NCBI GenBank assembly: GCA_008632985.1 | Contig: QPGO01000084.1 | Coordinates: 248,001-312,000, forward strand | Direction of reading: 5' to 3' | Origin: Psammoneis japonica | Lineage: Eukaryota | DNA: 64,000 bases | In this document: piece after piece, positions 4,201-56,973 of the stretch | How positions within the stretch are numbered: position 1 is the first letter of the stretch | Layout: each line of letters starts with the position of its first letter | Notes under the pieces: model-generated | Databases searched by the model: none | What the model saw: the letters and a program-made list of their open reading frames with translations, nothing else | Told to the model about the DNA's origin: nothing | Position numbers and translations under genes: made by a program

Positions 4201-6930
4201 GGTTGCTTTATGGTTGTTCTTGCTACAACATCTCTTCTGTTTCGCTCTTCTTAGGCTACTCTGCCCACGTCGACACAAATTGTATGGACGTATATTATTG
4301 AGCTTGCCTTTTTGCACGAAACTCTCAATGGATGGAGTGTGGCTGGCACTATCTCATCATATGGGATACATGCTCTTGGCGGAATTCATCAGAATGCTTC
4401 CCACGCGAGCCAAGGAAGAAACGGAACCATTGCTCATGGAGCAGCAGGATCCAAACAAGGAGCATGTTCGATTACTGCATTATTTCAAAGATGTAGATAA
4501 ACTCAATGTTGTACTTCTGCAATCTCAAATAAAAGTTATTCCATTACCAGCATGCGTACAATACTTCTCTACGATTAGGGTTACAGTATTCTTTGAACCG
4601 ACTTCTCTTTTATTGCAGTAGCCTATGTTGAATATTTCGAATACACTTGTCGCTCTAGAGCATGGAGCATACAGTGTAGTGTTTACAGTGTGACCGTATG
4701 ATAGAGGGTACGGTAGAGCGCATTTTTCTACCTGGTGTGGGTAGAGGGTTTCGCTCGAGTCCCGGATTTTATTCACAAGCACCATCACCAAACGCAGCTG
4801 CAGCACTCAAGGAAAGGGGAAAATTTGTGAAGCAAAGTGTGATGCACAGGCACAAGAATTTGGTGTAGAAGCAGTGCATCCAGCCACACAGTGCTGATGG
4901 ATGCAAGAGGCACCAACAAAAAAGAAGCCAGAGGGTGCTGGCGCCCCAGCTCTTGCAGAGAGCTGTGCCTGTGTGCTGCAGCTTGAACAAGCAGGTGGAA
5001 GGGGTTGACAAGGTGCCAAAAGGGAGAGTGGCAAGACTTTTTGTCACTGAACACAAGCAGTTGAGATGCTCTGCAGCACAACCCAGAGCAAGAGCTCATT
5101 GTTGACCCCAGCTGGCCAGTGTGAAAAATCCCTGCATGTTGTCAATGACCAAAGCAGCACCCCACAAAAAGTGTTTTCAGCACCACTTTGACACGTCACC
5201 CAGTTTGTTTTGAGAGCTGCCTCACAACAACAAGAGCTGCACCAGTGCTCATTGCAAAATCTCCAAGCTTGCCCAAAAAGCATCGTTGGACAAGCTTGAG
5301 CTGAAAATGTCTCTCTCTCTCTCTCTCTCTGCTGCCGTGTGCTGCTTGTGTCAAATGAGAACAGAAAAGCATGTCCTCCAGCATGACCTCTCTTTAGAGC
5401 CAGAAAATTGTCTTTGCAGATTTGGCTTGCAGCTTTGGTGCAGAACTCCCAACACGATGCTTCACAGAGAGGCAACCCAGCAGCAGAAAGCAGCTCTGAA
5501 TGTTGGAGCAGCAAGCTGCCAGAGCAACAACAGCAACAAAAAGATGAAAAGGTTGAAGTCACAGCATCTGAGGTGGATAGAAATGACCTCCAGCATGCAC
5601 TGGGGCAAGGTCGGCAGCAGCAGAAGCAGTGCAGGGCAAGCAACAAAAGGCTTGCTTTTGTGAGGAGGGCGTGAGCAAAGTCAAAAAGCCATGCAGAGAA
5701 AAGCAAACCAGCTTCGTGCAGCCTTGGTCAGGTGGCGGCTCATGCGCACATTGTCACGCACAGCCACAGCTGCTTGTGAGAGATGCCATGCATGCAGCAC
5801 AAAAGAAGGTGTGCTGTTGGTCAGCTCCCAGCTGCAAGAGCTCGGCCTCTTGCATCACCAGCTCAGGACACTTTGTGGAAAAGTTAAAAAGCAAAATGCT
5901 TTGACCAGTGTGCACAGCACGGCGACAGGAAGTGGGTGAGACAAGCCTGTTCTGAGAGAGGAAGGGGGGGGCAGCTGCCAAGCACTCCTGCTGCAAAGAC
6001 GAGAAGAAAAGACCAAAGAGATTGGAAACATGCAACAGCTGACAATGGCATTTCTTTCTGCTTGGAATGCCTTTTCATTTTCTGAGTTCACTCTCCTTGT
6101 TGCTTGTGTTGGGCTGGCAAAATTTGTTCCAAGATCTGTCCTCTTTCTGTGCACACTGCATCACAGAGGTTCAAAGCTGTGTTTGATGATCAGCTGGGTT
6201 CAAACGACAAAGGGGCAATGTGTGATGACTCTAAAAGTTGCCCTGTTGAGCATGTCATGCAACAAATTCGTCTTCATGTGCGGCATGACCTTGTGACGTC
6301 CTTTCCCTCATGTGCGGCACAAAATTTGCACCGCGCATGAGGTGCATTCACTTGAGGTGGTGCGGGTGCAAAAGTGGGCCAGATTCTGTGTGCGCAGAGC
6401 TCAGCACATTTTCTGCACAAATTGCCAAAGTCGGCTTGCCAACTTGGCTTGAACCCTCTCCTGGGTGATGGAAACTTGGACATTTCACATGACAAAATGT
6501 TTGGACCACCCAATTGCACTCCCCTCAACTTTTTCATCAAGAGAAGTTGCAAGTTTCCAAAGGTTTCTTGTTTGCGGGGCTCTTCAAAACTTGAATGTTG
6601 TGATTTTGGCACCTTTTTGATTAGATTTGTCATGTGTTCTGGGCACCATCTCATGTCCAGAGGTCAATCACAAACTGATGCCAGCACAGATGGCCTTTGC
6701 AGGTGCTTCAAACAACTCCTCCTTGCACAAATCCTTGGCACCCAAACACAAGCTGCTGGGGACAAGCCATGTTGGCCATTTGGTTTCTTTTGTGCTGTGG
6801 GGTCAGACCAAGAAATGCAGCACTGCTGACAAAAAAAGAAGATGAGTTTTGTGTGGATTGCTTGCTCCCCCATCACCTTGCATTGCTGCTGTCCCAATGG
6901 TCAAGATGCTGACAAGGGGAGGTTTCTGAA

Positions 6931-7192
6931 GGCCTGCTCCAGCTCCAGGTGCTCCGGGCGGGTTTGATTCCCCCATCATTTGGCAATTTGTGCATTTGGC
7001 GCAATTGACTTTTTCCAAATCCGTTTTTTGCCAAATCAAAGGGCAAGTGTGCACTTTGCATGCATTTTTGGGTGTGCACTTGCCTTGCAATTTTCGAAAC
7101 GATCAAAATTGAAGGAGTTCAATGCACTGAACTGTGCAGAAAATCGGTCTCTCGTGTGATGAAAAGCGGATCACCTGGAGCTGGAACAGGCC
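6931..7192. mobile_element. MITE, ~26-bp TIRs (GGCCTG(C/T)TCCAGCTCCAGGTG), 4-bp TSD TGAA
   Basis: 6931 ggcctgctccagctccaggtgctccg is the reverse complement of cggatcacctggagctggaacaggcc ending at 7192 (2 mismatches). TGAA flanks both ends. Confidence 0.8.
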
Positions 7193-7253
7193 TGAAACAT
7201 GTTTGCTCCTTTTGCTTTCTTCCAAATGGAGAGCAGCACGCAAGTCTCTGGAC

Positions 7254-7643
7254 GACGCGTTCCAGCTCTAGGTGGGACCTCGTACTACTGAACTGTGACA
7301 TCGATAGTTTTTTGGATCGCACCGTATGTCGCGCACGTAGAATTGTACGAGACTTTTGTGAAATTTTGTATCATTTTGTGGTACACTTATTGAGCGATCC
7401 GTCCAACAACTTTTGACATTTTTTGTTACAGCGCGATTCTATAATGTCTTAAGAATCGCGCAGGGCAGGCGTATTTGCAAAAATGTCGAGTGGCAAGAGG
7501 CATAATTGTACCACAAACTTGGCCGTTTATTTGATGTTGAAGATAAATATATCCGTTAATTAGATTCTCGTACTACGGAGCTCGCACGTAGAATTCTACG
7601 GGCCCAATGTCACACGGAGTCCCACCTAGGACTGGAACCCGTC
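7254..7643. mobile_element. MITE (390 bp), TIR GACGCGTTCCAGnnnTAGGTGGGAC, 4-bp TSD GGAC; least-mutated copy
   Basis: Terminal inverted repeats, GGAC at 7250-7253 and 7644-7647, and full-length similarity to copies at 54280-54669 and 55024-55413. Confidence 0.9.
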
Positions 7644-8849
7644 GGACAACAAGTCACCAGTGCCGCAGATTGTGATGTTGACATTGGGCAAGGGGGACAT
7701 TGATTGTGTGCTGCCACTCTTGCAACATGGGAATGTTGCCCTCCTTGGCAGTCAGGTGACAAGAATCACCCAATGAAATGACCAAGCCAAGACACCGTGC
7801 ATTGGCCAAATTGTCTGGCGGGGTCTTTCACAGCACTCTTGCACTCATGGTTGTCAAACACTCCCTTGGAATGGTGGGTTGTGGCGTGCACAACATCATG
7901 GAGAACCACTTGTTCCTGCTTTTTGAGAAGCACTGGCAAGCTTTGTTGCAGCCAACAACCCCTTTCAGCCCAGAGCTTGTCAAACACCCCTTTTGAAGCA
8001 GCCGCCAATGACTCTCACTTGGCTGCCAAGGGCAGCTCTTGTTGTTGTTTGCTTTGAAAACAAGCTTGACATTTCCAGGGACTTGCAAAGGGCTGCTGTG
8101 GTTGACAACAAGCTCCCAGGAGCAGCTGCAGTGCTGGCCATTTTTTGGGATCTGTTCAGCAGGTTGCTGGTGCTGTGGGTCACTTTGATCATGTGTTCTT
8201 GCTTGGGGTGCCTTGGGTGCATCAGATGTGTCTTGTGATGCAGCAACAGACCAGACTGCTGCTGCCACATGAGGTGCTGATGAAATCAAGAAGGTGCCAT
8301 GTGCCGGGGGTTGGCTGTTGAGAGGTGCTCAGCAAACAACCTGCAAAGATGAGGAAACATTTGCCATGAGCCCACAGCGGTGCTGGGGGTGCCCTTGCTT
8401 CCTTTTTTGTGGCGGCACTGGAGTGTGCTGGGGGAGCACCCATGGCCACTGGCAAGCCTGATCGCCTGATTGGCTCACTTGTTGGAGCGCAATGCAAAAT
8501 GTGCGAAGCCTTCTCGTGGTGGAATGCGAAGAAGGCAAAGTCACAACAACTCACCACAGACGTCACAGTGCACTGTAGACAGACCGATGACGTGCAATGT
8601 TTTTGGCGGGACAGGAATTTGAAAGACGCGTGCATGCGCGCACGCACCAAATTCGAAAAAGATCCATTGTGCATGTAGAAACACTGCCTGATTCTACGGA
8701 GAATCCACTTTGTGGTGCACAAAGTCATGCAGGTTCTACGGAATGCATCAAAAACTCGAGTCATGCAGTGAGTCACAAGCATCACATCGCCACCGTCACA
8801 ACTCAACAGCATTGAGAACATTTGACATTGCATTGACATCATTGGCAGG

Positions 8850-10754
8850 ATGAACTTCACCAAAGGCGCTCTCCCCGCAGTGGCTGGCGGAGCCAACGAC
8901 AAGAACAATGACGGGAGCGACTCGGAGGGATTGCAATCGCCACATTCTTCTGTCGACAAGTTGTTCTCACCGCGTTCAAACAACACCACCGATGAGCTTG
9001 CATCTCTGCGTTCGAATGGTGCCGAGGATGAGTTCGCTTCCCCTCATTCCGCTGGCGCAGAGCAGCCGCTCAACAACGAAAGGCCGCGTTCTGTTGGCGC
9101 TGTGGTTGAAACCGAATCACCGAGTGCTGCCGTGGAAGGAAAGGTGAGATGGTTGAACTCAGCATCTTTTCCGTGCGTGCCAGCACGTCCATCTTTTGCT
9201 CATCATTGCTTGTGTCGCATTGTTTGTTTTCATGGACAGCGTTCTTTCGCCGCCATCTTTCCTGACGCGAACGTGCCAACCCAGGATCGGGCAAAGTGGC
9301 TTTACGAAAACTTCAACATCTTCACTCAAGACGACATGGACAGGGCAGTCAAGGAGCTGACAATCGGAAAAAATGCAAGCTTCGACATGTGCGGAACGCA
9401 GTTGCATTTCAAAGAAAAAGGAAACTCCATGCTGCCAAGGACACTCCTCCGGTCTTCATGTGCCATGGCCAACGTGGCAGCTCAAAAGATACAAAGTGTC
9501 TTCTTGTGCTTCAAGATCCAAACGATTTAGGGCCTGTGGTGGACAAGCACAGGCAAGAACATGTCCGTCATGACCCAAGTGCAAAAAACGAAAAGCGGGC
9601 GGCGTTTTCATCTGAGGTCTCGCATCGAGTCGCTACTTCCAACATCAAGCTTGTGAAAGCACTGTGGAAATTCATTCGCCCACAAGAAGAGGAGCGTGAA
9701 GAGTTTCTCAAGAAGTACAGCAAGAACCAGTCCTCTCCTCTCAAGGCCATCAACCCCGGCGAGGATAGTTTCGAGGATGAAACTGCTGTTGTGAGCACTC
9801 CGCCTGGGCTGCTTCCGGAAACCGTCGCGGAGGTAAGTATCGCGCGTTCATTTAAATTGTCGAGGAGCGATCCCATTTGTCTCACGTGTTGCATTTCGTT
9901 CTCCTTTTTATGCTGTACTGTAGGGCTACTCTGACGATGCCCATTCGTTGCCAGAGTTTGAAGGAATGTCCCGTCGGCAGGTGGAGCATGCCCTCCGGAC
10001 AGCTCTGGAAAAACTCAAGCAATCCGAGAAGGAAAACATCGAACTCAGAAAGGAAGAACACGAACTTCAAAAGAAAGATCACGAGCTTCGAAAGGAAGAA
10101 GCAAAGCAACGTGCTGAAGAACACGAGCTTCGAAAGAGAGATTATCAGCTTCAAGAGGAAGAACGGAGGGCAAACATGGAAGCCTTGAAAGGAACACCCA
10201 TGGCGAAGGCTTCATCGGCTGTGCCAGGAACGCCCATGGCGGTCGCGTCGTCAGCTCCTTTCACTCCGGTTGCGACGTTGGTTCCTGTCACTCCGGCTCG
10301 TTCAAGCACCAACCGCGCTGTCTCTTTTGCAGACCGTCTTAGCGATGCAGCCACGCCTCATTCTGGTACAGGCGTCACTCTGTTGACTACGAATGGCGCT
10401 GAGTACAGCGCCACCACTGCTGCCGCAGCCAACACTGCCCCTGCACCAGCTGACCATGGCTCCAGCGACCGTGACAATGCTACCACTACCACCATACCCA
10501 ATGCTGTCCGTGGCGTCCGCGACCATGACAATACCACCACTACTACCGCACCCAAAGCTGTTCGTGGCTCCCGCGGCTTCAACGTCGGTGACAAATGTCG
10601 TGTCATAAAGGGACAAGCGATGGATGAGGTGGTGGAGATTGTTTGTCAGAAAAAGAACAACTGTTACACTGTGAAGAAACGCGATGGCACAGAGCTCTCG
10701 AAGAAAAAACACCAATTGGAGTTCCTCGATCACTCTCTCAACGATGCCGAGTGA
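8850..10754 (+). CDS. Hypothetical protein with coiled-coil and C-terminal KOW/SH3-like motif; multi-exon, one apparent frameshift (~9490-9520), possibly a pseudogene
   Basis: Probable introns at 9144-9239 (gtgaga..ggacag) and ~9833-9922 (gtaagt..tgtag). Repeated EHELRK heptads. The C-terminus FNVGDKCRVIKG...YTVKKRDG resembles KOW. Confidence 0.5.
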
Positions 10755-13329: not shown

Positions 13330-14300
13330 CGTCCGTGTCATTTTCATTTGCATCGGCTGTTACAAAGCATTCGTTGCGCAAAGAAAAATGCGCAAGTTTC
13401 ACGAAACCGTCTCGTTTGAAACAGCGCAACCCGGGCTCAGCTGCTTGTCTCTTGCACCGCAGATGGATCCTTTCCTTTTGCAATCATTTTTCCATGCAGA
13501 GCTGGCAGAAATGCTGTTTGACTGCAGTGGCACAGCTGCATGATGTGGCCCAATGCCAACATCATGAGAGGAGGCCAGCAGCGCCCGCTGCGGCGGTGGC
13601 TGGCTGGGCTGTGCCTCGCAGCTGGTCTTGCCAGCACAGCACCACAAACAAGCACATTTCCTTTGACACCAAACCACAGGAAAATGTGCTCTTGATTGCT
13701 TGTCTCTTGTTTTGCAGCAGGCAGATCCTTTCCTTTTGCAACCATTTTTCACAGAGAGCTGGCTGCTGGGCTGCCAAGCAGCGTTGGCACTGCTGCTCAC
13801 AGGCACAGTGTGACAGCAGAACCTGACACCTGATTGCTGAGAGTCAGCCTTCAATCTGTCAAGTGCAAACTTAAATTGAAGTGCACAGCTGTGAGAGCTG
13901 AGAGCCTGAGTCTTGTGGCAAAACCGTGCAAAAAAGGGCCTTTGCGTTTGCCCTGCTTGCTTGGGTTTTTTCCTGCTGTGCCTCTCTTTTCACTGGCGCA
14001 CTTGCCAAAAAGAGAAACAGCACAGTGTGCTGATCATCAGCAATTTTGGCAGGAAAGGTTTGGCAGCAAAAACAGAACATTGGCTGTTGCTGTGCAAGTT
14101 GTGAAAATGCACAGTCTGGGCAGCGGCGCAGCTGCAGGAAGGAGCTTTTGTTGTTCATTTTTGGGTTTTCTCTCACGTCTCTTGCAATTGAATCACTTGT
14201 CACAGCAAAATGTGGATGTCATGCATTGACATTTTTGGCAGGAAAAGGTTTGGTGGCAAGATCAAACATCGGTTGTTGCCGCATCATGGTTGGTTTGTTT
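13330..14300. other. TpA-depleted domain D2 with internal direct repeats (probable DNA-transposon remnant)
   Basis: TA is nearly absent. Repeated blocks gcttgtctcttg..gatcctttccttttgcaa at ~13443 and ~13698, and ttttggcaggaaa(a)ggtttgg at ~14044 and ~14233. Confidence 0.65.
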
Positions 14301-15499
14301 TTGTCGCAGCAGCATGAATGTCGTAAAAAGTCTGTCCATCGTACGTGCGAATTGAACGTATGGCGTTTTCTCCTCCCCTCCTTCTTTTCCTCCTCTTTTT
14401 ATTTTGCGGACCGTGTCGGAGGGAGTTTCGATCGGGCGACACACGGACTGCGTTGGAGAGAATATTTTATTTGCATGATCGTACTGTACCAAAAAAAAAC
14501 ACGCCACACCATGGCGTAATCTTCAAGGAAGAAACTGCTTGATTTACTGTAAGTGCCAAGAAAATACGTTTTTAGATCACTCGCTCCCATCACGGGTTGC
14601 AATAATCCAGAAAAAGATGGCATGGAGGTGGACGATAAGAGCAATAAGGCGTCGTCTGCGTCTTGTGAAGGCAAGCAAAACAAAACAAAGGCTTCCACCA
14701 AGAGCAAACAATCAACAATCAACGTCTTAGTCCACCGCAGTCTTGCACTCCGATGCTGTTGGTGGTGTTGATGCACATCCGTTTGCTCGTGGATCTCTGG
14801 GAAAATGAGGATGACGATGTTACTACAGTCGACGGACGAGCCGGTAGTGGGCCCAGCATCAGAGCACATCATCCTTGCGGCTGTTGTCGGTGACAAGTAG
14901 CGTCATTGTGTGCACTGCCGCCACTTCAATCGATGTGCGGACGAATGGGTTGGCATGGGTCGCATTGTGTCACCTCCTTCATTTGGGAATGCCAAAGCTC
15001 GAGTGATGAAAAAGGAGGAAGAACGTCGAAAACGAAAGCAAGCGCGATTGGAGGAACGGAATGCGGAAAACACTTAAGATTCACTGCGGGCACACCGGGA
15101 CAGACGGAAGCCGCTGTGGGCGGTGCTACTGCTACTACTACTACTTCAGCTGAAGAATCGTCTACGGACGCTGTTGCGGCTATGGTCTCAGATCCAGCGT
15201 CAGCAACTACAACTCCTCGCATGACACGCCCAACGTGCTGACGGTGACGTGTTTTTCGGCGTGCAAACGGTGTTTTTGATTGACGCGTCTCACTGTATGA
15301 CGCCACGTATATTTCTCTCTTTTGTTTAGTTGCCATTCGTATACAACCATTGAGCTCCAAGGAATCACGTCGAATACAGCTAGCCGTGTACAGAAAGTTC
15401 TTCGGCAGTACAAGTCGATAGTCGATTGATCAAACGAATTATTGGCCGAACCTTTTGCAGCTTTAACAGAACCTTTGGAGAAGAATATACTACACCGCA

Positions 15500-16250: not shown

Positions 16251-17399
16251 GCGAACTGTTAAAGGAAACACTCCTAGGAGCCCTCTAACTCGGAAAGAGA
16301 CTGCTACATGTTGTAGGAATGAGTAATGTGATCTCTCCATCGGTTGAAATGGGCATGGAATAAATATTTAAACTAAACTAAAACAAGATGTGTTGACTAC
16401 TAGTCCCCATCAGATTTGCGGTCTCATGACTCATGCTCCCTCACCACAGCACGGTCGTCAACAAGAAGGAGTGCTGCTGCCTGTGGTACCCTTGGGGGGC
16501 CCCGTGCAGGTTGTTAATAGCCCATCAGCTCTTACAACAGCCATGTTCAATGTTTTTTTACGATTAACATGAAAAACTCGGGGCTTTCTTAACTTGGTGC
16601 TTTCCTAACCAAGGGGGCCTCTTGTTTGCTTGGCGCCCCACCAAGGTTCTGGGCTTGTCTTTTTCATCGAGGTGCTTTCCTAACCTCGCCGTTTTAGTTG
16701 TTAACATCGAGTTTCCTCTCGAGTGGGGTTTCCTGAGGGTGCAGAGAATGGGACACTCTCGGTGCATAACCCAACAGGCGGTCGTCCTACCGTACCGTAC
16801 CGTACCGAGACACTCGTCAGTGCCAGCAATTTTAAGAATGTTTAAACCTGCATGAGAAGAAAGAAGGTATAACTCAGCCAGTTTGGCATCGTTGGAAAGG
16901 GGTTAGCACTTCTTCATGTCTTGCAGAGCGCCGCAACCATACTGCAGTGCAGAGAGGGCGGTCGATGCAGAAGGAGTGAGACGAAAACACGTCGTGCAGC
17001 GAAGATCACGAGACGGCGAACAAGACAATGTGGCCAAATCTTTGCGCTGGCCTGCCTTTTTTCAATTCAAACACTCACATCACGCCTTCTCGGCTTCGAA
17101 TGAGCTTAAACATATATACATTGATTATAACAACAATTCATTCGTGGCGCCAATTTAAACGGAAAAGATGCCTCCCACCGCACCGTGTGCATCGCTTGCA
17201 TCGCTTTTCGCGCCTTCCGCGGCGATTTCAAAAAGAATGGCTGGCGGCATTCTTTTTTATCAACGTGCGCCAAAAAACACATAAGAAGTTTTTAGCGGAG
17301 ACGTTAAACTTTTGCCGTTGAAGCAATTCAAAACCGATGGCGCCTTTCCGACGATTCAAATCAATTGTTTTTGAAATTTTCAAATCAACCCACGACGAA

Positions 17400-30815: not shown

Positions 30816-30818
30816 AGC

Positions 30819-33759: not shown

Positions 33760-33888
33760 TTGGCTCGTAGAAGTATTAACAGGGCCCTCTAGAGTGTAGA
33801 GGATATGAAAATGTTTGCGGTGTGGGCCGACCACTAACTGTGCACTATTAAATTAAATATCCCTGCTTATTTTTCACGAGCTCTAATT

Positions 33889-39450: not shown

Positions 39451-39469
39451 GCATTGGACATGGTTGTTT

Positions 39470-40550: not shown

Positions 40551-40663
40551 TGTGTTGTGGCTTGGTCAAGATGTGGGAGCTTTGCTCTGAACTTGTGCCA
40601 ATTGTGTGAGCTTCTCATTTGCAATTTCCTTGTTGGTTGCTGGAATCTGCAAATGAGAGGGAG

Positions 40664-41139
40664 AGTCATGGGTCATCTGTCCACTGACCCAAATTCTCTG
40701 TTGTGTTTGCACTTCTGTTGGTCAGAATTCTGCGGCCGGTGGCTTTGGGGATCACAGGCATTGCGTGGATGTTGGGCCAACCGCAGATTGGTTCAGCAGC
40801 ACTTGGAGGATGATTGCTGTGAAAGTGGTTGACCCTGAAGCTTGTGCTGGTCTCCAGCACAAGTGTGCAGATGAACCTCTGTTTGGCACATTCTCAGCAG
40901 ATTTGTTCTGTGCAGCTTGTGATTTGGTCACTGGTGGTTTTGTGAAAGACTTCTGACCAATTGTTTGTTTTGCTGCTCATCAGCAGATGCTCTCTGCTTG
41001 CATTCTGCCAGAGGCATTGGTCTGGAGCAGACATCCAGTTGATGTGTTGGGAAGGCACTTGGAGCTTCATGGACACACAAGCTTTGACTCCACACCAAAC
41101 TGCACGCCACCATTTGTTTCATCCTTTCTCACCATGACA
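40664..41139 (+). mobile_element. Putative copia 3' LTR preceded by polypurine tract
   Basis: Purine run aaatgagagggag at 40651-40663. Terminal inverted ends agtcatgg...ccatgaca. No matching 5' LTR seen in the window. Confidence 0.5.
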
Positions 41140-42549: not shown

Positions 42550-43433
42550 CAATTTCATCATCTTCTCAAAGTTTGCCCCAGCAACAACCTTGTGTGCTCC
42601 TCTTTGAGGTGTTGCTGACTGCTGGAGAACACAAAGAGGCTGAAAAGATTGCCGAAAAGCATTCTGAGGGACGTCAAACACAAGAATGCCATTTTGCTTG
42701 CAGCTGCGTGATTGTCGATTTTCTCAAATTCAAGCTCAGCATGGGCAAAGGGAAGCAACTGAAGGAAACCCTCTGCAAGGCTCTCATGCTTGACAACATG
42801 GTGCTGCTCCTGCTGCTTGCAGATGTTGATCTTGGACCTCCACCCAAGACGGTGGCACAAGGAAGCACAGGTGAAGCCACTTTGCAAGTGCGGTCTGCCA
42901 TGAAGCATTGGGAAAGAACGGCAGAGGTTTTGGACTTGTTTTGCGCAGCTTGCAGTGTTGAGATGGATCCAAGCCCAATGATGGTGTGTCCATTCTATTT
43001 CAGCCAATGCAAAAGGGATGCACAGTCATCAGACTCCAAGAAGGAGAACACAAGGAAGTTGCAACCAACGTTGTCAACATGCCAGGAACAGGGCTTGCAG
43101 ACTTCAAGCTCCCTCCCGGCATGAAGGACCACAATTCATCCAGGATGGTTTGCTGCATGAGCAGCAATGCCATCGCCAACTCATCCTACGGCGAAGCTGC
43201 GTCTGCCGAGTTTCCATGGGGCCTACTTCTGTCCAGTGGGTGAGTTTGCTGCAGCGCTGTTCCGCTTTTGGTGACGACGAAGAGCCCCACGCATGAGCGC
43301 TACAGCATGCTTCAAGCCTGCCAACATGCGATGCTCCAAATGTAAGATTAGATGGCACTGCAGCACGGATTGTCAACGAAAGGGCTGGAAGAAGCAGCAC
43401 AGGATAATGTGCCCCGAATACCTCAAAAAGTAA
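42550..43433 (+). pseudogene. MYND zinc-finger protein remnant
   Basis: C-terminal CFKPANMRCSKCKIRWHCSTDCQRKGWKKQHRIMC (consensus YCS is read as HCS). The upstream helical region is frameshifted. Confidence 0.7.
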
Positions 43434-46284: not shown

Positions 46285-46499
46285 TGTTGTCAACCAGCCT
46301 CTGTTTGATGGGAATCCAAATGCATTCTCCACGATTTTGATTGTGTGGCGAGTCATTGCCGATTCAGTCGTCCGTGGCGCCATGTCACGAGCCGATTCTA
46401 CATCCACCACCCATGCGCCGGATTTTCGGCACCAGCTGAGTCAAAGCCGGCGGCCACAAAAAGGCTGAAAAACACAAATCGAAAATGGTGGTTGCACCG

Positions 46500-49400
46500 T
46501 GGTCAGTGCAACAACATGGGTCAAAAGAAAACTTCGTGAACGCAGATGGAGAAAGACCATCAAAGCCAGACCCAGGCATCTCCAATTTGGGGAGAGCCCA
46601 CTTCTGATGAGGACTCAGCACTCGACATGTGAGCATGTTCGTGGTCGCAGTCGGTGGATCAACGACCCCGCCACAAAAGCTTGACAAGAGGCTGGTTGGC
46701 TTGCTTGGGCACAAGGGGAGTCCACCATGGAAGCCACTCAATTTCAGGAAAAAGATCTGCCGACAACAGCAGAAGGTTTCTCAGATTTTTTTGACCATCC
46801 TGAAGACATGGAGCGTGTTGCAGACAAGCTTCAGACAATTTTGAGGAACAGCAACTTGCTGTTTGAGCCAGACTCAAGTGCCGCGGATCTTGACTCTGAC
46901 AGCGATGATGCAGGTGCCAGCGAAGGCAACAATTTTGTCTCTCCACCACCATCCAAGCGCCCCAGAACTGACGAGGACTCCATTGTGGGTCAAGACGACG
47001 ATGACGAATGCGACAAAGATGGCGGCATCAACCGTGTTGAAGATCCTTGGCTCATGGCACAATTGCGGCAATTGGCAAAGGTTGATTTGAGAGCTTTCTC
47101 TGAACTGGAATTTGTTTTGCTTTCAGCGGACCAGAGCAACAGTGTTGGAGACACTGCGGCGATCGTGGAGGCATGCAAGACTCGGGGATTTGAACCATCG
47201 TCCGACACCATCCAGTCTCTCGAGACGATGTCTGTTTTCAAGCTTCGGGCCTCCAGACGGATCATTGAGACTGTTCGTGGTGAATTTGTGGCAACCCAGC
47301 AACACTTCGAACCTTCTGACAATGAACCACTGATTGACTGGCTTGACCAAGTCAAGCAATTTGCAGAAGGCAAGCGATGCGGAGACTGCCACCAACGCAG
47401 CGACTGCGAGCGATGCAGAGAGTCGAGTGAGAGTTTCCTCGAAAGAAACTTCAATCGACTTCAGAATGGCGTGTGCAGCATTGAGGACAGAGCAGCACAA
47501 GTCGTCCGACACGTTCGCCATTGCCGCAACATTTGCTTGTCAAGAATGGGTGGGTTGCTGAATGCACTCGCCCCATTGTTCCTTGGGAGAGCTCTCAAGG
47601 AAGAAGAGTTTGCGCTGGAGTTGACAACTCAAAATCGTGTGCAGCATCTCGACCTGATTGACACTTTCCACCTGAGGTGCAATTTCCAAAAGCACTCTGT
47701 GGTTCAAGATGAATGCGGCAACAACATCATGATTTGCAGTTGCGACGATGACTCCACATTTCATGGTGGCAAGCGTCATGTGCTGCTCGTGACGGCGAAC
47801 TCAGAGGACAAGACACCAAAATTCCATCTTGCAACGACATCGGCTTCCGTGTCAGCGGATGGTGACGGCAACTCTGATCTCAATGTCAAAGCATTGACAG
47901 ATCTTTTTGGAAAAGAGAATGCCCCTCAGTTCTTCCAACACTTTGGCGGAGGATGCTCTGATGATGCTCCTGATGCCTTGGAAACAATGCGAAAAAGTTT
48001 TGAAAAGGCCACGCACCTCATCCCGGAAGAGGCGCGCCTGTTGAATGATGTTGCCAGATGGGCCATTGTTTGGGGCGACCCCTTTCACATTGCAAACTTG
48101 GTGGTCATGTGGGCGTCTCTCGCTGATTTGGAGAAACCGACCGCACCAGCCATCAAGAAGTCCATCACCGACAACTGATGCAGTCATTTTTTGATGCTTT
48201 GAAGGGGAACAGAGGCCTTGCATGTTCTGTTGCAATGGAAATCTGCAAGGAGCATGACTTGCCGACAGTCGTTCCCAAAGCGGCAAGAGAGCGCCAACAA
48301 CGATGGTGTGTCAACCAACGTCAATGCAAACACTTGTTGGAATTGCATGACATGCAGTGTGGCGACACAAGTTTCTTTCTCCTTTTTTGCCAAGAAGTGG
48401 CAAAACATTTGGGAGGATGCCAAAGCAACGCAATGGAACACTGCGGCACGTTGATGAGCATGCCCAAAATTCGACTTGCTCTTCAATTTGAAGCAGAGCT
48501 TGGGTGTTTCTTTGAGCCTGTCATGGCGTGGCACTCCCACACCGGTTTGATCGCGAACATTCCTGGCTTTCGTGTGCTAGAAGTCCGCGCCTTCTTTGTC
48601 AACTTCGAGCTGCCATTTTGGAAAAAGCACGAGTCAAGCCAGCCAAAGCATTCCCCAAGACGTTTGCTGGGCTGTCAGAAATTGAAGATGAGGCGGTGAG
48701 AGATGTGAAACGAGATCAGATCGTCTCTGGTGGAATTGAAGCTGGGTTCAAAGAACTGCTCAAGATGACGAGGCACTGTTTCAGCCCATCCAACATGTCT
48801 TTGGTCCTTGTTGCTGAGCACACACAATGTTTTGCTCGCGCGTTGCTCCGGTTCCTCCATGAAGATTCCGACAACTTGCGATTTGCTGTGGAGGATGCGG
48901 GCATGTCACAATTCAATGAGCCAGCAGGGCTTGAAGATGAGCTCACCAAGTTGCCAGAGGTCGACATTGACAGCGTTGTTCATTGTCTTCAGCAACTCGG
49001 ATTGTCAAAGCATCGTGCTTTTTCCAAAATCAAGAAGCTCTCATTGGATGAAGAAAATGCCAGCCACCTTTTTGATTTTAAGGAGGCACACCCAGCTGTG
49101 TTCACGACATTGCATTCTGCACTTCATTGTTCATTGTCTTCAGCAACTCGGATTGTCAAAGCATCGCGCTTTTTCCGAAAGCAAGAAGCTCTCATTGGAT
49201 GAAGAAAATGCCGGCCACCTTTTTGATTTTGAGGAGGCATGTCCAGCTGCACTCATGACATTGCATTCCGCATTTGGGCTCTTGCCATCAGCAATTCGCC
49301 TGGCGGAGCAAACGATGGCGATGCTCCGAGGGCATCTTGGACTCAAGACTGCAACTTCATCGCACACGAGTGCAGACCAACGCAAGCGGCATTCAATGAA

Positions 49401-50166
49401 TGTTGAGCATGACAACCAAGTGGCAAGGCAGAAGAATGTTGAGAACCGACATGACAAACGCCCGACTGGTGGTTTCAAGCATGAGAAAAGCAAGTCGGAG
49501 CAGCGAATGGTTGGGGAGCAAATGATGGAGTCAATGGGCAGATGCAAGGACGAAGTGTTGGCTGAAGAGCTGACCAAAGCTGAATTTGACAGCATCAAAA
49601 CAAGACACTTGAATGACAAGGGTGTCATGGGGAAAGACAAAACACGGATTGAAGCCCAAAATGCAAGGGCTCTAGAGAAGGTGGCCCAAAAAAAAAAGCC
49701 TGGCAAGATGGCGATCGATTTTGAGATTGAAGGCTCGGAAGAAACTGTGGACAACGACGACAATTGGGCTGCATTCGAGCAAGCCGAGCTCAACAAACGT
49801 CGCAAGGAGCTTGCCACCCAAGCCTTTTGGGCAAGCCAGTCACTGCAAGACATTCTCATGGTGTGCCAAGAAGTCTTTCCAGGGATGCAAAAGCTCCAGC
49901 CAGGTGGCAGGGGGAAGCTCGCCAAGACGGGCATGAAAGCTCTGACAAAAGATTGGCTGTCTGCTGAAGGAGCTGCTGCAAAAACAAACACAGCTGCTGC
50001 AGCTGGACTTGAGTGTGAAAAGTCTGAGTCCAGCGCAGCGAAGCGGAAAGAGGCAATGCAGGGTTTGTTTGATGTGGCTGGGTCGGAAATTGGCCAGCAC
50101 TGCTTTGAAGCTTGCAGCAATGCACGACACACTGTGCTGTGTTTGCTTGGCAGGAATCATGTGTGA
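46500..50166 (+). mobile_element. Degraded DDE transposase, hAT-like, inside TpA-depleted domain D5 (46200-50380)
   Basis: Motif order DDST ... GGCSDDA ... WGDPFHIANLVV (C/DxxH..NL) ... RQQRW ... FGLLPSAIRLAEQ (P.S...E) fits hAT. Frameshifts, including a 151-bp tandem duplication at 48976-49272. No Tyr in the 483-aa ORF 46727-48178. Confidence 0.6.
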
Positions 50167-53100
50167 TCCCAATGGTGTGTGTTGCTTCTCCCCAATCACC
50201 AGTCGCATGCTCAGTGAACACTCGCACGAGATTCGAAGTTGGGTGCTGTGGGGCAGGTCGTCTCGGAGTGAAAAATGTCTGTTTTGTTTTCACAAAGCAT
50301 GGCCTGTCGAGCTGCAATGAGCGTGCCATGATCTTGGGATTGCAAACCACCACAAATGTTGCCACCCTTGCTAATCACCTCTGCTCTAGAGTAGCCCTCT
50401 AGTGGGCCCTCTAGATAGAGGATGCCGCAACGTGCAACGTCCCTGTCATCGCAACGCCTGTAGAAATGGCACGAGCGCTCGTGCAAGTTTTACTCGTGAC
50501 TTCGAATCACCAGTCGAGAATGTATGTTGACTCATTCGATTGAATGAGTCACGACTCGGGAATGAAAATGGATCCATTCGACTAGAATTTATGAAAATAA
50601 AAATAGTTAGACTTTGACCCCCCACTCGAGACAGAAATACACAAGATATGAACCTTATCGGTCTCCTACCCTTTAAAACAATGTCTTGCGAGAATAGAAT
50701 AGGTGTGTATTGTTCATGGTGTGAGGTATTTGAAAATGGAACTAACTTTTCGCGGAGCACCTTTTTACTGTACACGTGAAAGTACGAGGGACGATTTTTA
50801 GTGATAGCTCTATCTAACGCAACCTTCTACTTGCGACCCCAAAAGTTATCGGGAACTTCGTATCGGCTGGAAATGTATTTTGGAAAACCAGGCCTGCGGG
50901 GAGCATTGACCACTTGTCTTTCTTTGTGGGTGTGGGTGTGTGCCGTTGCATGCTGTATTGCCTGTACGTACGTAGGGCCCTACCGCCGGGGCCGGTATTG
51001 TGCGTGGCGGCTGAGTGGCGTGGCCACCGCACCGGTGACGCGGATGACCGTTATATTTGATGTCTCATGCCATTTTTGGGGCTGTAGCGAGGTGCACGGA
51101 CACTCTTTTTTTTCCAATTTATCGCCATAAATAGCGCATCGCACAAACTCACTTATTGTTCGATATGTTTTCCCAAATATGACTGTTTCGTGTAGAATTC
51201 ACGACAAATTATCTTTGTTTATAACTGAATACAGGCATCGCTGATCTAATCGAAATCGCGCAGCGCGCACATCTAGTGTGCAATAGGAATCATTCGGGTC
51301 CTGAGAGTCTATGGCTCCAACTTCCCGTAGAAAGACCTCAAACATAAATTTTATTTAAGACTGGATAATAAATAAATTTGGGTGTTCGCAAAGATTTGAC
51401 TACTTGGACTGCTCAGTTTTTGGTTGTCTCGGCGCGTGCTTCTTCGTGTTATTTGCGCATCGCGACAATGGCGAAACACCGTTCCGCTGCAACCTGCTCA
51501 ACAACGACGTCTCAGTAGCTCGACAAATCATCAAAAACGAACCAATCACACTAAGACGCGTCAAATGGCAGTAATTTGTCGAGCCACTGAACCGAGTTGA
51601 CGAAGAAATGACGATTTGCAGTGACGCCTTCACGTCTTCGTCGACACGACAAATGATGATGCCATGCAAGATCGATGGAAGGCAGATGGAACATTGGATC
51701 CGACGTATTCGACTTCACGTTTGACTTGACAACTCTCCATCATCGTGTAAGGTGGGAACTTTTTGCAGTGCGCTGTCTCAAAACATGAACTTTGCTGCGT
51801 GCCCTCGTTCGATGTGCGCACGTTGAGTGAAAAGCAAATTAAAAATTGGCGTTTCGGCCAATGGCATGACCCTGTGGACAAGATTCTCCTGAACGTGCCG
51901 CCAAGAAGTGCACCTCTTCCGGGGTGGCTGGAGCAGGTGATGATGAGAAGTGAGCACTGAAGTTCACACTAGACCAGAAGCAACTGCCAGTTACGACCAC
52001 AATGAGTTTTGTCAATGGAGTGTCAGTGTTGTTTGCATTTCAGCAGTTTGGTTTATCTGGTCATAGAACCGTCCAAGGGTGAGCAAACACAAGGAGTTTG
52101 TGGTTGCATCTTGCTTGATGCCGCACTCTGAGGTTCCAAACACTGGAAGCATCAGAACAAACTAGATCATCAAAAGCACTGTGCAGCACAGGCCGCTCGT
52201 CACTTGGCACAGTCACACTTCAAGAATGCCATTCACCACCACATGTTGCGTTTGGCAAGTTGCAAGTCATGCTGGATGGATTTGATCTGGGCCACGCACT
52301 CGTTTCTCAACAAACTCAACGAGCATCGACGACAAGGCCAACTGCTCAAGCTTGACGAGAAGAAGTGTTTCGAGTTCAGAGATGAACTTGAGGTCCATGC
52401 CCAAGGGATCCAACCAGGAGAAACACTGCTCTGTTAAAAACCATTCTCCTGAAACAATGCGAGGAGTTAAAAGGAAGGAGTGTCAGCAGCAGGATTGGCA
52501 TCAATGCAAACAAGTTCTTCTAAAAAATTTCGTCCTCTGTGTCCACTGACATTTAATGTGCAGCACTGAACAATGCACAGTCCTCTTCTGCCTGCACTTG
52601 CCTTGTTGCTGCCGTGTCAATGACGATGGCGTTTTAGTCTCTCGGCAATTGTGCCCGTTGCTCATCATCTTCTCCTTGTGTCGTTGCATTGTTTTGGGTT
52701 GATTGATTGATGAGTGCTGATGACAGCGCGAGAACTGAAGCCGATTTTTTAGTCGGCAGAAAATTTGTCTTAAATGTGCATTTTGAATGTGTTTTGATGA
52801 TGGGGTCTTTCAGTGCGAAGTTGGAGCCATGGAGTCATCACGTGGAAATTGTGCAGGAGAGCACTAAAAGACAATTGTCATCAGTCTGTCCATCCGTCCG
52901 TGTGCGAATGTCAACTTCTCGGGAAATCAATTGAAATGCTGTCTGATTGACGGCATTTTGATCCACACAGTGAAGGCCAGTGCCATCAACCAGACAGCAT
53001 TTCAACTGAGTTCCCGAAAAGTCATTGGCTCCAATCACTCTCTCGCATGACATTGTGTGCATTTCCACACGATTTTGTGTTTTTCCTTGTGCAAAATGTC

Positions 53101-53435
53101 AATTGTGACCCACCCAACATTTTCGAATGACTCCTGTTGCATTGTTTTTCATGTTGTTTCCACAAGCATTGCATTGCTGATGAACCCAAACAATTTTGTT
53201 TCCACATTTGACCGCAAATGCAGCGTTTGTCATTTTCATGAATGAGGTCCGTGAGACATGAAGACACGTCGGACATTTTTCTGCATGCGCTGCTGACATC
53301 ATCTGTTGCTGTTTTAACCAAGCCTTCGACTCCAAACGAGGCCGGTGTCAGGCAGTTCTGACGCATGCCAAGAAGTGCCAGTTCCTCACCACGGAGATGC
53401 TCACCAAATGCTCGCCGCATCTGTTTGCATCAGTT

Positions 53436-53773
53436 GATGCATTCCAGACGCAGGTGGGAATCCGTGTGACATTGGGCCCATGGACTTCTGCGTGCGAGCT
53501 CCGCAGTAAAATCACACGGCAATTAAAACGTCAATGATCGCCAACAGAAAATGAGGCAATTTTGCGAACGCACAAACTTGCACATGATTGAAGTGCATCA
53601 TTTTTTACTTGGCCAGTTGCACTCTTCAGACATTGAAGAATGTGGCTGGCGCATTGTTGTTTCTACAAATTTGTCATGCAAAACGTCTGGGGTGCGAAAC
53701 ATGCGACGGATGACAAAAATTGTTGTTGTCACACGTCAGCACTGCGAGCTCCCACCCAGGGCTGGAACGCGTC
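53436..53773. mobile_element. Diverged member of the GAC-TIR MITE family, TSD AGTT/AGTC
   Basis: Ends gatgcattccagacgcaggtggga...tcccacccagggctggaacgcgtc; shares tccgtgtgacattgggccc with the other copies. Confidence 0.7.
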
Positions 53774-54279
53774 AGTCGCGCGAATGCTTCCCGCCCCACC
53801 CGACCCCCTTCACACCCTTCCTCATCGACGCCCAAATTTCGCCAAGTCGAAAATTCCACTGTGCTGTGGCGCACTGCAGAGCAATGGCGATCGACTTGAG
53901 ACATCACACACTGAGCCGCACGTGGAAATCCACTGAGATGACTTGATGTGTTTTTCGTGTGAGTCGCCTTGGCATCTGCGGCCGTTTCTCACAACTTCTT
54001 CCAGATTTAAAACAATGGAAGCAGCACCATGCGACAACATTGAGTCCATGTGATCATGTCAGGTGAAGCAAATGGCAAAATGGTGTGGACTTGTGGCCAA
54101 AATGGACTTGTTGCATTCACAGGATTGTTCGTGCACCATGCAAACTCAGTGCATGAGGCAGCCAAACTGGATCCACACGACACACCAATGAGCTCAAAGA
54201 CCAACTTAAACATGGAGGATTTAATCGGCTCATTGTCACGCAGTTTGATCTTAGACTGAGGGGTCAAAATGGCCCAAGA

Positions 54280-54669
54280 GACGTGTTCCAGGTCCAGGTG
54301 GGACCTCGCACTGCTGAGCTGTGACATCGACAGTTTTTTGAATCACGTCGCATGTCCCGCACGCAGATTTCTACGTGATTTTTTCGACATTTTGTGTCAT
54401 TTTATAGTGCACTCATTGAGCGATCCATCCAACAACTTTTGACATTTTTTGTCACAGCGCGATTCTGCAATGTCTTAAGAATCGCGCAGGGCAGGCGCGT
54501 TTGTAAAAACGTCGAGTGGCAAGAGGCACAATTGCACCACAAACTTGGCTGTTCATTTGATGTTGAAGACAAATGCATCCATTGATTAAATTCTCTTGTT
54601 GCGGAGCTCGCACACAGAATTCTGAGGCTCCAATGTCACACGGAGTCCCGCCCAGGGCTGGAACACGTC
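54280..54669 (+). mobile_element. GAC-TIR MITE copy 2 (TA-mutated), TSD AAGA/GAGA
   Basis: Colinear with 7254-7643 over its full length. Confidence 0.9.
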
Positions 54670-55023
54670 GAGAAAAGGATCTAAAACTTGACAATTGACA
54701 GCTTCTGAAAAAACTCCACAAGTCTGCGATTGCAGCACTGGACAAAAGAGAAATGAACTTCACAGACTGACCAACACATGACAGCTCGATTGCTCTTCTT
54801 TTTGTTGTCATGCGGTTGAAATTTGATGCCGTTGCGGCCATCATTTTCATGCTCTGTGTGCCACCATGTTGTCGATGCGTGTTGTTTTCTGTTTTCTGGG
54901 CATTGCCGTCAGTTTTGGTCAGTTTTGATGGGGGGGGGGATTGTGTTTGGTTTGAAAGAGTGATGTGGCAGTTCGCACATGACGGAGAGACTGATGCAAC
55001 GCATTCAACGAAAAAGTCGTGGT

Positions 55024-55413
55024 GACGCGTTCCAGCCCCAGGTGGGACTCCGTGTGACATTGGGCCCGCAGAATTCTGCGTGCGAGCTCCGCAGCACGAG
55101 AATTTGGCCAATGGACACATTTGTCTTCAACATCAAATGAACGGCCAAGTTTGTGGTGCAATTGTGCCTCTTGCACCTCGACATTTTTGCAAATGCGCCT
55201 GCCCTGCGCGATTCTCAAGACATCACAGAATCGCGCTGTGACAAAAAATGTCAAAAGTTGTTGGACAGATCGCTCAATGAGTGCACCGTAAAATGGCACA
55301 AAATGTCAAAAAAATCACGCAGAAATCCATGTGCGCGACATGCAACATGATTCAAAAAACCATCGATGTCACAGTTCAGCAGTGCGAGGTCCCACCTGGA
55401 CCTGGAGCGCGTC
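55024..55413 (-). mobile_element. GAC-TIR MITE copy 3 (inverted, TA-mutated), TSD TGGT/TGGC
   Basis: Reverse complement is colinear with 7254-7643. Confidence 0.9.
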
Positions 55414-56973
55414 TGGCGAGCATTTGGTGAGCATCTCCGTGGTGAGGAATTGGTGCTTCTCCGCAAACCCACCCAGAAAGACCCTCATGATGTCATTGAT
55501 GACGCAATTTCAACTCGCACCAAATGTTTGAACAAAAGTCACCCAAACGCAGAGTTGTCGCGTTTCTTTGCCGACAAAGTCCAACAAACAAGTGATCGTC
55601 CGGAACAACAAATGATGACCCCTGCACATTTTTCAACATGCCATGCCGGCAACCCCAATTTTTGAGAACTTTCGAGCTCTCCTGAAAAACCGTGCCACGT
55701 GCAGGGCTCGCCGCTCTGGCGTTTGTGTTTTGTTGTCCTGCACGATTGCTCACACACCAGACTTTGTTGGTGAAGAAACAAGACAACTGCATTTTTGCAA
55801 CTTTTGTTCGAACATTCAGCCCAAGTTGAAGTCACGTCATGAATGACATCATGTTCTGTGCGCATCACAGTTGACTGACTGCATCCTCGCAGTGAGCCCT
55901 GCTGCATTGCTGCAAGTGTTTCTTCGCACCCATGCAGCAAAAAAAAATCTGCAATGTTTCATTGTCTCCACTCGTGAACACAATGCTCGCGAAAATGACA
56001 CGAAAAACAACAAACACTGGATGTGCGCGCCGCGTGATTTCAATTGGATCAGCAAGCCCTGCACCCGTCGCGGGGAATTTGTCGATTTTTTGGGATGTGT
56101 CCCCACGACCTCTCATGTCCTCAATGATCATTCTGCAAATCTGAAAAGTTCATCTGCACTCAGACGGACAACCCGACTGCCCGACTGCCCGACGACTGCC
56201 CAACCTCCCGACTGCCCAACTGCCGGACCCACACGAAAAAGTCTGCAATCACCAACCACTGAGTGGTCAATGAAAATGGGGGGTGTGTGATTACACGTGG
56301 AAGCATGACGTTGGGCTCCATAGCAGCTTGGAAACTGGCCAACACCGACGACGACGACTCGAGCTCCGATGACTTGTTTCAGATTTTGCGTCCGACTCGC
56401 GCGGGTTTTTCGTTTTTCGACGTTTATTCAAATGTTATATCTCAAATTTTTATATACAGCATTCCTTTTTGTAAATGTGCATAATATTGTACCGTTTTAT
56501 TCATTATATATATGTTAAAACCATGCCACTACAGGTTTGTACGTACCATACAGTAGCACACGTAGAGCAGATCGCGTAATTTTGAATGCAACAGTAATTT
56601 TATGACGATCTGTATACACATATGCTTTTAGCTGATTTTCACGTTGTGCAGCCACAATGGCATGCGAACGAATCATCGTTCCCGCTGTGCTGCTTCGTCG
56701 TTGCCAGTTCCATTAGAACACATAGCGCCGCATAGATAAAGCTTGAACGGAAGCGTGGTCGTATCAGTCCGCAGCTCTATTGAGAGTTCTGAATGCCAGG
56801 CGAAGAGGCGAACCCAAACCTTTTTGATTTGTTCGTTGGGTGTCGGCAGGTTGATTGATCGATTGATTGGTACGTTTGCGAAGTGCTTGTCCCCGTATTG
56901 TAGTGTCTTGTATGCTTGCTTTATCTTCTTGTTCTTTCTAACCATGCTCTTATTCTCTAGTCGTAGACACAGA

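Follow-up and report, generated by a model that had tools for sequence, protein, structure and literature searches.

Near-complete loss of TpA from blocks of mobile DNA in the diatom Psammoneis japonica: probable hypermutation to TpG and CpA

The 64-kb window analyzed here (contig QPGO01000084.1 of GenBank assembly GCA_008632985.1, positions 248,001 to 312,000) belongs to the diatom Psammoneis japonica, and all counts given below refer to this one window. It contains six kilobase-scale blocks in which the dinucleotide TA (TpA) is almost absent and TG and CA are frequent. Remnants of Copia retroelements, a DDE-type transposase and copies of a miniature inverted-repeat transposable element (MITE) lie inside these blocks; a TLC-domain gene and a TA-rich element with inverted arms lie between them. 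An earlier note on this DNA had proposed that the TA-poor domains were the product of an undescribed mutational process resembling fungal repeat-induced point mutation (RIP). The features are listed in Table 1.

Table 1. Features of the 64-kb window, numbered from its first base (o/e, observed/expected ratio)
Feature	Position	Strand	Remarks
Block 1a	4866..7253		6 TA in 2,404 bp (4866-7269); TA o/e 0.04, CG o/e 0.27, TG 1.71, CA 1.70
Block 1a, left edge			sharp; last dense TA 96 bp outside
MITE family			~390 bp with ~30-bp terminal inverted repeats; three copies: c7k, c54k, c55k
MITE copy c7k	7254..7643	+	TA-rich, inserted in block 1
Block 1b	7644..9303		5 TA in 1,677 bp (7627-9303); TA o/e 0.05, CG o/e 0.58
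Block 1b, right edge			graded, ~400 bp
Block 2	13361..14324		2 TA in 964 bp; member of a multi-copy repeat
Block 3	17305..27341		20 TA in 10,037 bp; TA o/e 0.03, CG o/e 0.18, TG 1.80, CA 1.87
Degraded Copia polyprotein	18184..21700	-	block 3; integrase, reverse transcriptase, RNase H; located by tblastn
TLC-domain gene	32212-33852		29-50% identity; named matches all diatom
TA-rich element	34404..36514		inverted arms of ~570 bp; unmutated control, 350 bp from block 4
Block 4	36868..42996		9 TA in 6,129 bp; TA o/e 0.02, CG o/e 0.29
Copia remnant	39392..40547	+	block 4; reverse transcriptase C-terminus and RNase H
Block 5	46399..50372		4 TA in 3,974 bp; TA o/e 0.02, CG o/e 0.67 (little CpG decay)
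Putative DDE-type transposase remnant	46559..49950	+	block 5; Hermes/hAT-like fold, 1,200-1,300 aa, few frameshifts
Block 5, right edge			sharp; TAs at +15, +20, +28
Block 6	52865..56292		two partly mutated MITE copies inside; right edge sharp
MITE copy c54k	54279..54669	+	block 6, largely mutated
MITE copy c55k	55024..55414	-	block 6, almost fully mutated

Over the whole window the observed/expected (o/e) ratio of TA was 0.38. In 1-kb bins it fell to 0.00-0.08 at 5-7, 8-9, 18-27, 37-43 and 47-50 kb and in parts of 52-56 kb, whereas bins outside the blocks ranged from 0.44 to 1.18. TA-free runs longer than 300 bp numbered 36 and covered 26,131 bp in total, the longest extending over 2,179 bp at 46399-48578. 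When the 1,585 TAs of the window were placed at random in 2,000 rounds, the longest gap did not exceed 566 bp and at most five gaps were longer than 300 bp. With limits drawn from TA positions, the six blocks total 27,831 bp and hold 50-57 TAs, compared to about 1,172 expected from the TA frequency outside. The frequencies inside and outside the blocks were 0.0020 and 0.0421 for TA (ratio 0.05), 0.0233 and 0.0556 for CG (0.42), 0.1067 and 0.0770 for CA (1.39) and 0.1092 and 0.0702 for TG (1.55). The gain in TG plus CA matches the deficit in TA; G+C rises slightly, from 0.478 outside to 0.501 inside, and AA/TT is not depleted (0.1595 inside, 0.1550 outside). The TA depletion is thus real and confirmed. 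Our block limits agree with those of the six domains delineated in the earlier note, except that the sequence at 51.7-52.9 kb, which had been counted as part of the last domain, is just partly depleted.

Copia sequences were identified in two of the blocks. In block 3, searches with 90 Copia protein queries gave colinear tblastn matches of 23-42% identity with E values down to 3e-14. In block 4 the best matches were diatom-type Copia proteins (44-50% identity, E down to 4.6e-59), the best named relatives being from Cylindrotheca closterium and Epithemia. The block 3 copy is more decayed than the one in block 4. Long terminal repeat pairs of the two remnants were not found in a purine/pyrimidine-coded self-comparison of the window.

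The protein remnant in block 5, the extent of which was set by tblastn, contains open frames of 497 and 465 codons. An exhaustive search yielded 92 relatives at E ≤ 0.001, the best with 40% identity and E 3.8e-86. No near-length homologue of the 497-aa open reading frame (ORF) was found at E ≤ 0.001, Pfam assigned no family to 10 of the relatives, NCBIfam returned nothing meaningful for four of them, and the sequence profile search against the PDB gave a chance match alone (E 0.32). The predicted model of the closest relative (mean predicted local distance difference test score, pLDDT, 80.1) had the Hermes transposase as its top match (Foldseek E 0.03, probability 1.0; VIA Z 7.0-7.4 over 192-229 residues); retroviral integrase cores came next, and the scores were middling throughout. 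Because of these fold matches and because D, D and H residues are near-invariant, we read the protein as a putative DDE transposase with a hAT-like fold, which would make the element a DNA transposon. A 149-bp tandem duplication at 48976-49275 lies in the transposase remnant; its units are 90.6% identical in nucleotides and 97.6% identical in purine/pyrimidine class, and the duplication is therefore older than part of the transition load.

Together with the MITE copies described below, these remnants place the change in kilobase-scale blocks of mobile elements, as had been claimed, and both retroelements and DNA transposons are hit. The further claim that dead gene copies also occupy the domains found no support: transposon remnants were found, and there was no evidence for dead gene copies. 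Contents could be identified for part of the blocks (Copia, hAT-like transposase, MITEs), large parts of blocks 3 and 4 being without assignment; a Pfam scan of the 142 ORFs of the window returned nothing that identifies blocks 1, 2 or 6.

The direction of the change can be read from codons for conserved residues, a column being taken as conserved when at least 60% of the relatives agree. None of the 13 conserved tyrosines is kept: the seven in the block 4 Copia protein are replaced by four His, two Cys and one Phe, and the six in the block 5 transposase by three Cys, two His and one Phe. Eleven of the 13 thus carry His (CAY) or Cys (TGY), the single-transition products of the tyrosine codons TAY by T to C and A to G, respectively, and TA is the starting state. 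Among the other conserved residues, with Arg excluded, 213 of 293 columns are unchanged (Copia 56/82, transposase 157/211; Fisher p 1e-7 versus Tyr). Tyr content served as a stand-in for the signature in other sequences: no relative with less than 0.6% Tyr was encountered among 90 Copia, 48 TLC and 92 transposase proteins, sets that are biased to intact proteins. On the sense strand His as well as Cys products are found, and within each block the numbers of TG and CA are balanced (255/256, 1127/1167 and 379/384). The dominant change is hence A:T to G:C at TpA on both strands, as the earlier note had it. No strand-coherent runs of TG or CA were detected, runs-test z values lying between -2.2 and +1.9 in the blocks, like outside. 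Balanced strands and the lack of coherent runs point to many independent single-site events and not to one processive sweep.

A second component is visible at arginine codons. Of 31 columns with conserved Arg, 17 still read Arg, and in the others Gln, His, Cys, Trp or a stop has mostly taken its place; in the block 4 Copia protein one of five remains, the others having become His, Cys, Cys and Trp. These losses therefore reflect a separate decay of CpG to CpA or TpG. Judging by the loss of CpG alone, this second and slower process is probably deamination of 5-methylcytosine. In a simulation, 95.5% of TA and 60% of CG in the non-block sequence of the window were converted to TG or CA. The simulated CA+TG frequency was 0.2200, compared to 0.2161 observed in the blocks, and the root mean square deviation of the dinucleotide frequencies was 0.0079, compared to 0.0291 for the unsimulated sequence. 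Two processes explain most of the difference between inside and outside. Deamination of 5-methylcytosine had been judged insufficient from the start, and rightly so, since it accounts for the CpG part alone.

The MITE copies allow the change to be followed within one family. Over 391 aligned bp, c7k contains 28 TA, 28 CG, 26 TG and 22 CA; the corresponding numbers are 6, 23, 32 and 40 for c54k and 1, 24, 42 and 37 for c55k. Copy c7k is 85-86% identical to the other two in nucleotides and 96.6-97.7% identical in purine/pyrimidine class; across all pairs, class identity is 96.6-98.5% and nucleotide identity 85-89%. The three-copy alignment has 78 variable columns, of which 64 differ by transitions alone; 52 of these 64 fall within pyrimidine-purine (Y-R) steps. 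At 27 sites a TA of c7k faces TG or CA in at least one other copy, and at one more it faces CG in c54k and CA in c55k. Five common sites show TA in c7k, CA in c54k and TG in c55k, and the presence of all three states at one site makes TA the ancestral one. The excess of TA to TG/CA changes that the earlier note expected from alignments of element copies is thus seen among these three copies.

Copies c54k and c55k, which form an inverted pair 354 bp apart, carry the identical product at 19 sites and different products at five. Flanking bases were not found to determine whether TG or CA results. In one place the 8-mer TCGTACTA became CA in both copies, and in another place the identical 8-mer became TG in both. 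The common products are therefore due to descent from a partly mutated ancestor and not to determination by context; with 19 of 24 conversion products in common, a partly mutated copy was still duplicated or mobilized.

The same copies give a relative rate. The ratio of TA loss to CpG loss is ln(28/6)/ln(28/23) = 7.8 for c54k and ln(28/1)/ln(28/24) = 21.6 for c55k, and TA has already gone from blocks whose CG o/e is still 0.67-0.85. The depletion of CpG, to which the earlier note gave no weight, is uneven: CG o/e is lowest, at 0.18-0.29, in the blocks at 4.9-7.3, 17.3-27.3 and 36.9-43.0 kb, lies at 0.42-0.58 for those at 7.6-9.3 and 13.4-14.3 kb, and reaches 0.67-0.85 at 46-56 kb. In block 6 the segments 52865-54278, 54670-55023 and 55415-56292 hold 10, 1 and 0 TAs at CG o/e of 0.74-0.85. 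The TAs that survive have a distinct context: 46 of 50 read TA[A/G]A on one strand or both, compared to 392 of 1,535 outside the blocks (p 2e-22). Estimated survival was 0.5% without this context, 13% when it was present on one side and 36% when present on both.

At some edges, namely the left edge of block 1 and the right edges of blocks 2, 5 and 6, TA density changes sharply, within tens of bases; at others the change is spread over 200-400 bp. A search of the block ends for terminal inverted repeats, with transitions allowed, yielded no more than chance-level matches of about 20 bp. The first 79 bp of block 2 match 1895-1972, and TA of that outside copy appears as CA or CG in block 2. Contigs from a public DNA run (X1) gave a summed word depth of 1,581 at 13667-14333 in block 2, versus about 60-67 for single contigs; block 2 is hence multi-copy and most of block 3 roughly single-copy in these contigs, which report present-day copy numbers. 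In block 4, the stretch 37868-39368 upstream of the Copia fragment shows a G-over-C skew of 0.34-0.47 and no A/T skew, and within it lies a 77-bp tandem duplication at 38185-38314. This skew is not accounted for by the TA process.

Not every repeat near the blocks is affected. The arms of the TA-rich element at 34404-36514 are 88% identical and differ by 27 transitions versus 29 transversions; they hold 35 and 32 TAs, and a further 86 lie in the 973-bp interior (TA o/e ~1.2). No long ORF is present in this element. Of the neighboring genes, the TLC-domain gene has its named matches in Cylindrotheca, Seminavis, Fragilariopsis, Pseudo-nitzschia, Grammatophora and Attheya. No match was near-identical, which speaks against Bigelowiella natans or a model diatom as the source of this DNA. 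Next to the TLC-domain gene, a contig of a second run (X2, labelled 'DNA?') skips a 92-bp GT..AG interval at 32120-32213 on the minus strand, and this run may be transcript-derived. X2 leaves all bins between 17002 and 27673 uncovered, which we do not take as a sign of silence. At 371-1257 on the minus strand, exons of normal TA content encode several IQ calmodulin-binding motifs (E 3e-17 and 2e-10) and are probably part of a myosin-type gene. Finally, at 57378-58964 a 525-bp unit is repeated three times in tandem with 97-98.5% identity, within ORFs 56740-58593 and 58422-60308; one ORF of this region gave a weak match to an AGAO-like N2 domain. The arrangement resembles that of a gene whose internal repeat has expanded recently.

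The earlier note knew of no described pathway with this mutational spectrum. This has to be corrected, since the same TpA to TpG/CpA hypermutation was measured by Mettrop et al. (bioRxiv 10.64898/2026.01.13.699255, April 2026) in mutation-accumulation lines of the chlorarachniophyte Bigelowiella natans. According to their text, two viral insertions received 231 of the 302 mutations; of these, 230 were A to G or T to C, and the GC-biased ones were all at TpA. The insertions were silent, they mutated at about 6e-7 per site per generation, and the effect was seen in some lines only. The same text lists 324 coding sequences with a TpA frequency of 0.0018, among which DDE endonuclease and reverse transcriptase domains are enriched, as well as 124 clusters of windows poor in TpA and rich in CpA and TpG. 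It puts forward an ADAT2-like deaminase with an HxE-PCxxC motif and a DNA-editing Asn, as a candidate only, and states that ADAR and ADAT enzymes prefer U or T before the edited A. In literature searches on TpA or A-to-G hypermutation and on RIP-like mutation in diatoms or transposons, this preprint was the single relevant report.

The likeness to the window is close. In both cases, going by the preprint text, changes are almost only A to G or T to C at TpA and give TpG or CpA, they are found in kilobase-scale blocks of foreign or mobile DNA with not all candidate insertions hit, the TpA-poor sequences have similar TpA frequencies (0.0018 there, 0.0020 here), and DDE endonuclease and reverse transcriptase domains are among the depleted sequences. 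When the cluster thresholds of the preprint were applied, 26 of the 64 1-kb windows met them and formed six clusters. The differences concern host, targets and degree. The host here is a stramenopile and not a rhizarian; the targets are transposons, whereas those described in the preprint text are giant-virus and virophage insertions; and the blocks are saturated at TA o/e of 0.02-0.05, compared to the 0.45 reported there for the region derived from a nucleocytoplasmic large DNA virus. CpG decay is superimposed here, and the word 'CpG' is absent from the preprint text. The refractory TA[AG]A context has no counterpart in its main text, in which 'flanking', 'context' and 'trinucleotide' do not occur, and diatoms and stramenopiles are not mentioned in the text. 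A rate per generation is given for B. natans, whereas the MITEs yield a relative figure only, 7.8-21.6 times CpG decay. On these comparisons the window matches every sequence-level feature of the B. natans process and appears to belong to the same kind. New here are the stramenopile host, the saturation on transposons, the coexisting CpG decay with its rate ratio, and the TA[A/G]A exception.

Fungal RIP shares with the process seen here that dinucleotide-specific transitions riddle mobile DNA, at the DNA level and on both strands. RIP, however, changes C to T (CpA to TpA), by which TA and stop codons are created and G+C is lowered, whereas the process in the window removes TA, makes no stops and goes with a slight rise in G+C. 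Classical RIP was therefore rejected on its opposite direction, which agrees with the earlier judgement that it cannot explain the domains. RIP is also triggered by duplication and mutates both copies of a repeat; on this point the present-day picture in the window is mixed, block 2 being multi-copy, most of block 3 about single-copy and the 570-bp inverted arms untouched. A diatom methyltransferase, DNMT4, is described in the accessible text of PMC9998398 as related to the RIP enzyme RID and without known function; we regard it as a lead and not as evidence, because RID-type chemistry would give C to T. Decay at 5-methylcytosine shares the CG o/e of 0.18-0.85 and the change of Arg codons CGN to CAN or TGN, and so explains the second component, but it cannot remove TA and is 8-22 times slower in the same MITE copies. 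The animal APOBEC3/AID and ADAR systems likewise rely on context-specific hypermutation of mobile or viral nucleic acid, by deaminases as would be the case here. APOBEC enzymes, however, produce C to T and ADAR acts on double-stranded RNA, unlike the present changes in chromosomal DNA, which include cut-and-paste transposons and affect both strands.

We therefore consider it probable that these blocks are mobile DNA of a diatom nuclear genome in which TpA was converted to TpG or CpA by a mutator acting at the DNA level. Such a mutator would convert nearly every TpA, with equal use of the strands, site by site and over many rounds. It would outpace the CpG decay of the same DNA by a factor of about 8-22, its reach would end some tens to a few hundred bases from the block edges, and some neighboring repeats would be spared; a slower decay of CpG to TpG or CpA would be superimposed on it. 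The sequence itself shows which way the bases changed, that one dinucleotide is concerned, that the strands are used symmetrically, that DNA transposons are hit along with retroelements, and that the change keeps to the blocks. TA followed by [A/G]A would be a poor substrate. The chemistry may be enzymatic deamination of the A after T to hypoxanthine, which is read as G, and the enzyme could be a deaminase, of the ADAT2/TadA type or another, that is brought to silenced chromatin. Its role may be genome defense in which mobile DNA is inactivated without the creation of stop codons. Conversion of TA to TG or CA removes TAA and TAG and creates no stop, and the mutated elements accordingly keep long open frames.

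Adenine deamination, which the earlier note had reasonably put among its candidate mechanisms for an A:T to G:C change at TpA, would be the most likely chemistry, and its main rival starts from the other base of the same step. A TET/JBP-type dioxygenase could oxidize the T of TpA to 5-hydroxymethyl- or 5-formyluracil, and mispairing with G would then give T to C. Since TA is self-complementary, all results fit T to C equally. Dinoflagellates, which belong to the same stramenopile-alveolate-rhizarian (SAR) group, carry 5-hydroxymethyluracil in place of T, with a preference for TpA and TpC, and 5-formyluracil promotes T to C mutation. The window, however, contains no sign of thymine modification or of such an enzyme, TC is not obviously converted to CC, and the sole published treatment proposes adenine deamination in its text (10.64898/2026.01.13.699255). 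On balance, we regard oxidation of thymine as unlikely. Much less probable still is error-prone patch synthesis in methylated or heterochromatic DNA by a Y-family polymerase of the Pol eta type, which had also been listed beforehand and which mutates WA to WG. The preference of Pol eta includes TA, and the CpG decay in the blocks suggests methylation; WA, however, also covers AA, and the undepleted AA/TT disfavors this candidate, as do the loss of more than 95% of TA (about 20-fold) and the concentration of the MITE transition columns in Y-R steps (52/64).

Hyperediting of element transcripts from A to I by an ADAR/ADAT-like enzyme, followed by reverse transcription and reinsertion, would draw on the preference of editing enzymes for U before the edited A (Discussion of 10.64898/2026.01.13.699255), and Copia retroelements are indeed present in two blocks. 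Such a route, however, needs an RNA intermediate, and its A to G changes are confined to the sense strand that is transcribed. Cut-and-paste elements (the MITEs and the element with the DDE transposase) are hit as well; both strands are changed equally, with His and Cys outcomes and TG close to CA, and the flanking non-coding parts of the blocks are depleted to the same degree. A route through RNA is hence very improbable. Similarly low is the chance that base-calling, polishing or a DNA modification caused TA to be read as TG or CA. The pattern is extreme, and the one run in support is possibly that from which the assembly was made. Yet the X1 contigs (word depth ~60-67) reproduce 3.3 kb of block 3 (17355-20675) with 0 differences, and over 21983-23142, 23339-24283 and 25154-27604 they show one difference, one difference, and two differences plus one gap. 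In addition, the changes are limited to mobile-element blocks with sharp edges, MITE copies differ in product at the same site, and G+C and the mass balance of dinucleotides are as expected from real substitutions. We give the least credence to foreign DNA that arrived TA-poor or to selection against TA, for example by a TA-cutting nuclease. Nothing specific speaks for this reading beyond the TA avoidance that exists in some viruses. Seven of seven metagenome loci related to the transposase show TA o/e of 0.44-0.95, so that the family is not intrinsically free of TA; conserved tyrosines have been replaced, which damages the protein, and the MITE copies differ in TA content (28, 6 and 1). Intrinsic TA avoidance was rejected on these relatives and on the differences from copy to copy.

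Several observations weigh against the proposed DNA-level mutator, or against its simplest form. A few TA to CG double changes occur at MITE alignment columns 143-144 and 236-237 and in 13361-13439 compared to 1895-1972; they speak against strict TpA specificity because the first change already removes TpA. The inverted-arm element at 34404-36514 is spared at a distance of 350 bp from a saturated block, and c7k keeps its 28 TAs within saturated block 1; the targeting rule is therefore not simply 'repeat' or 'position in a block'. A model in which each strand is hit independently did not fit, as survival at one-sided TA[AG]A exceeds what it allows, and protection by the flank seems to extend to both strands of the site as a whole. 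The simulation left residuals, with AT and GA/TC lower, GC and CC/GG higher and G+C at 0.501 compared to 0.486 predicted, which may reflect element composition or a weaker A to G activity outside TpA. Chemistry by A to G and by T to C is inseparable on sequence, because TA is self-complementary. The X1 run may be the assembly's own sample and its support non-independent; its agreement with block 3 therefore argues against a consensus or polishing error and is not independent proof. Lastly, the counts from a single window do not cover genome-wide extent or present-day activity.

For genome annotation, TA-free blocks yield long false ORFs, because the TAA and TAG stops are gone, and they distort composition-based calls of genes and of horizontal transfer. 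The loss of TA relative to that of CpG offers a built-in clock for dating insertions, and a natural, dinucleotide-specific A:T to G:C editor of double-stranded chromosomal DNA would interest base-editing research. A TpA mutator of invading DNA has so far been described in one preprint and for one rhizarian alga, and the saturated signature in diatom transposons suggests that the process is widespread among marine protists. Tentatively, and at slightly less than even odds in our estimation, TpA editing may be an old defense against mobile and viral DNA that is common to at least two SAR branches, the stramenopiles and the rhizarians, and relies on a dedicated enzyme with TA[A/G]A as its footprint. 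In transformable, CRISPR-ready diatoms candidate deaminases and dioxygenases could be knocked out, which would make the mechanism testable. If true, TpA editing in diatoms would be a functional counterpart of fungal RIP with opposite chemistry, saturating on transposons, in which coding capacity would be killed through Tyr to His or Cys and similar replacements while the reading frames are kept open.

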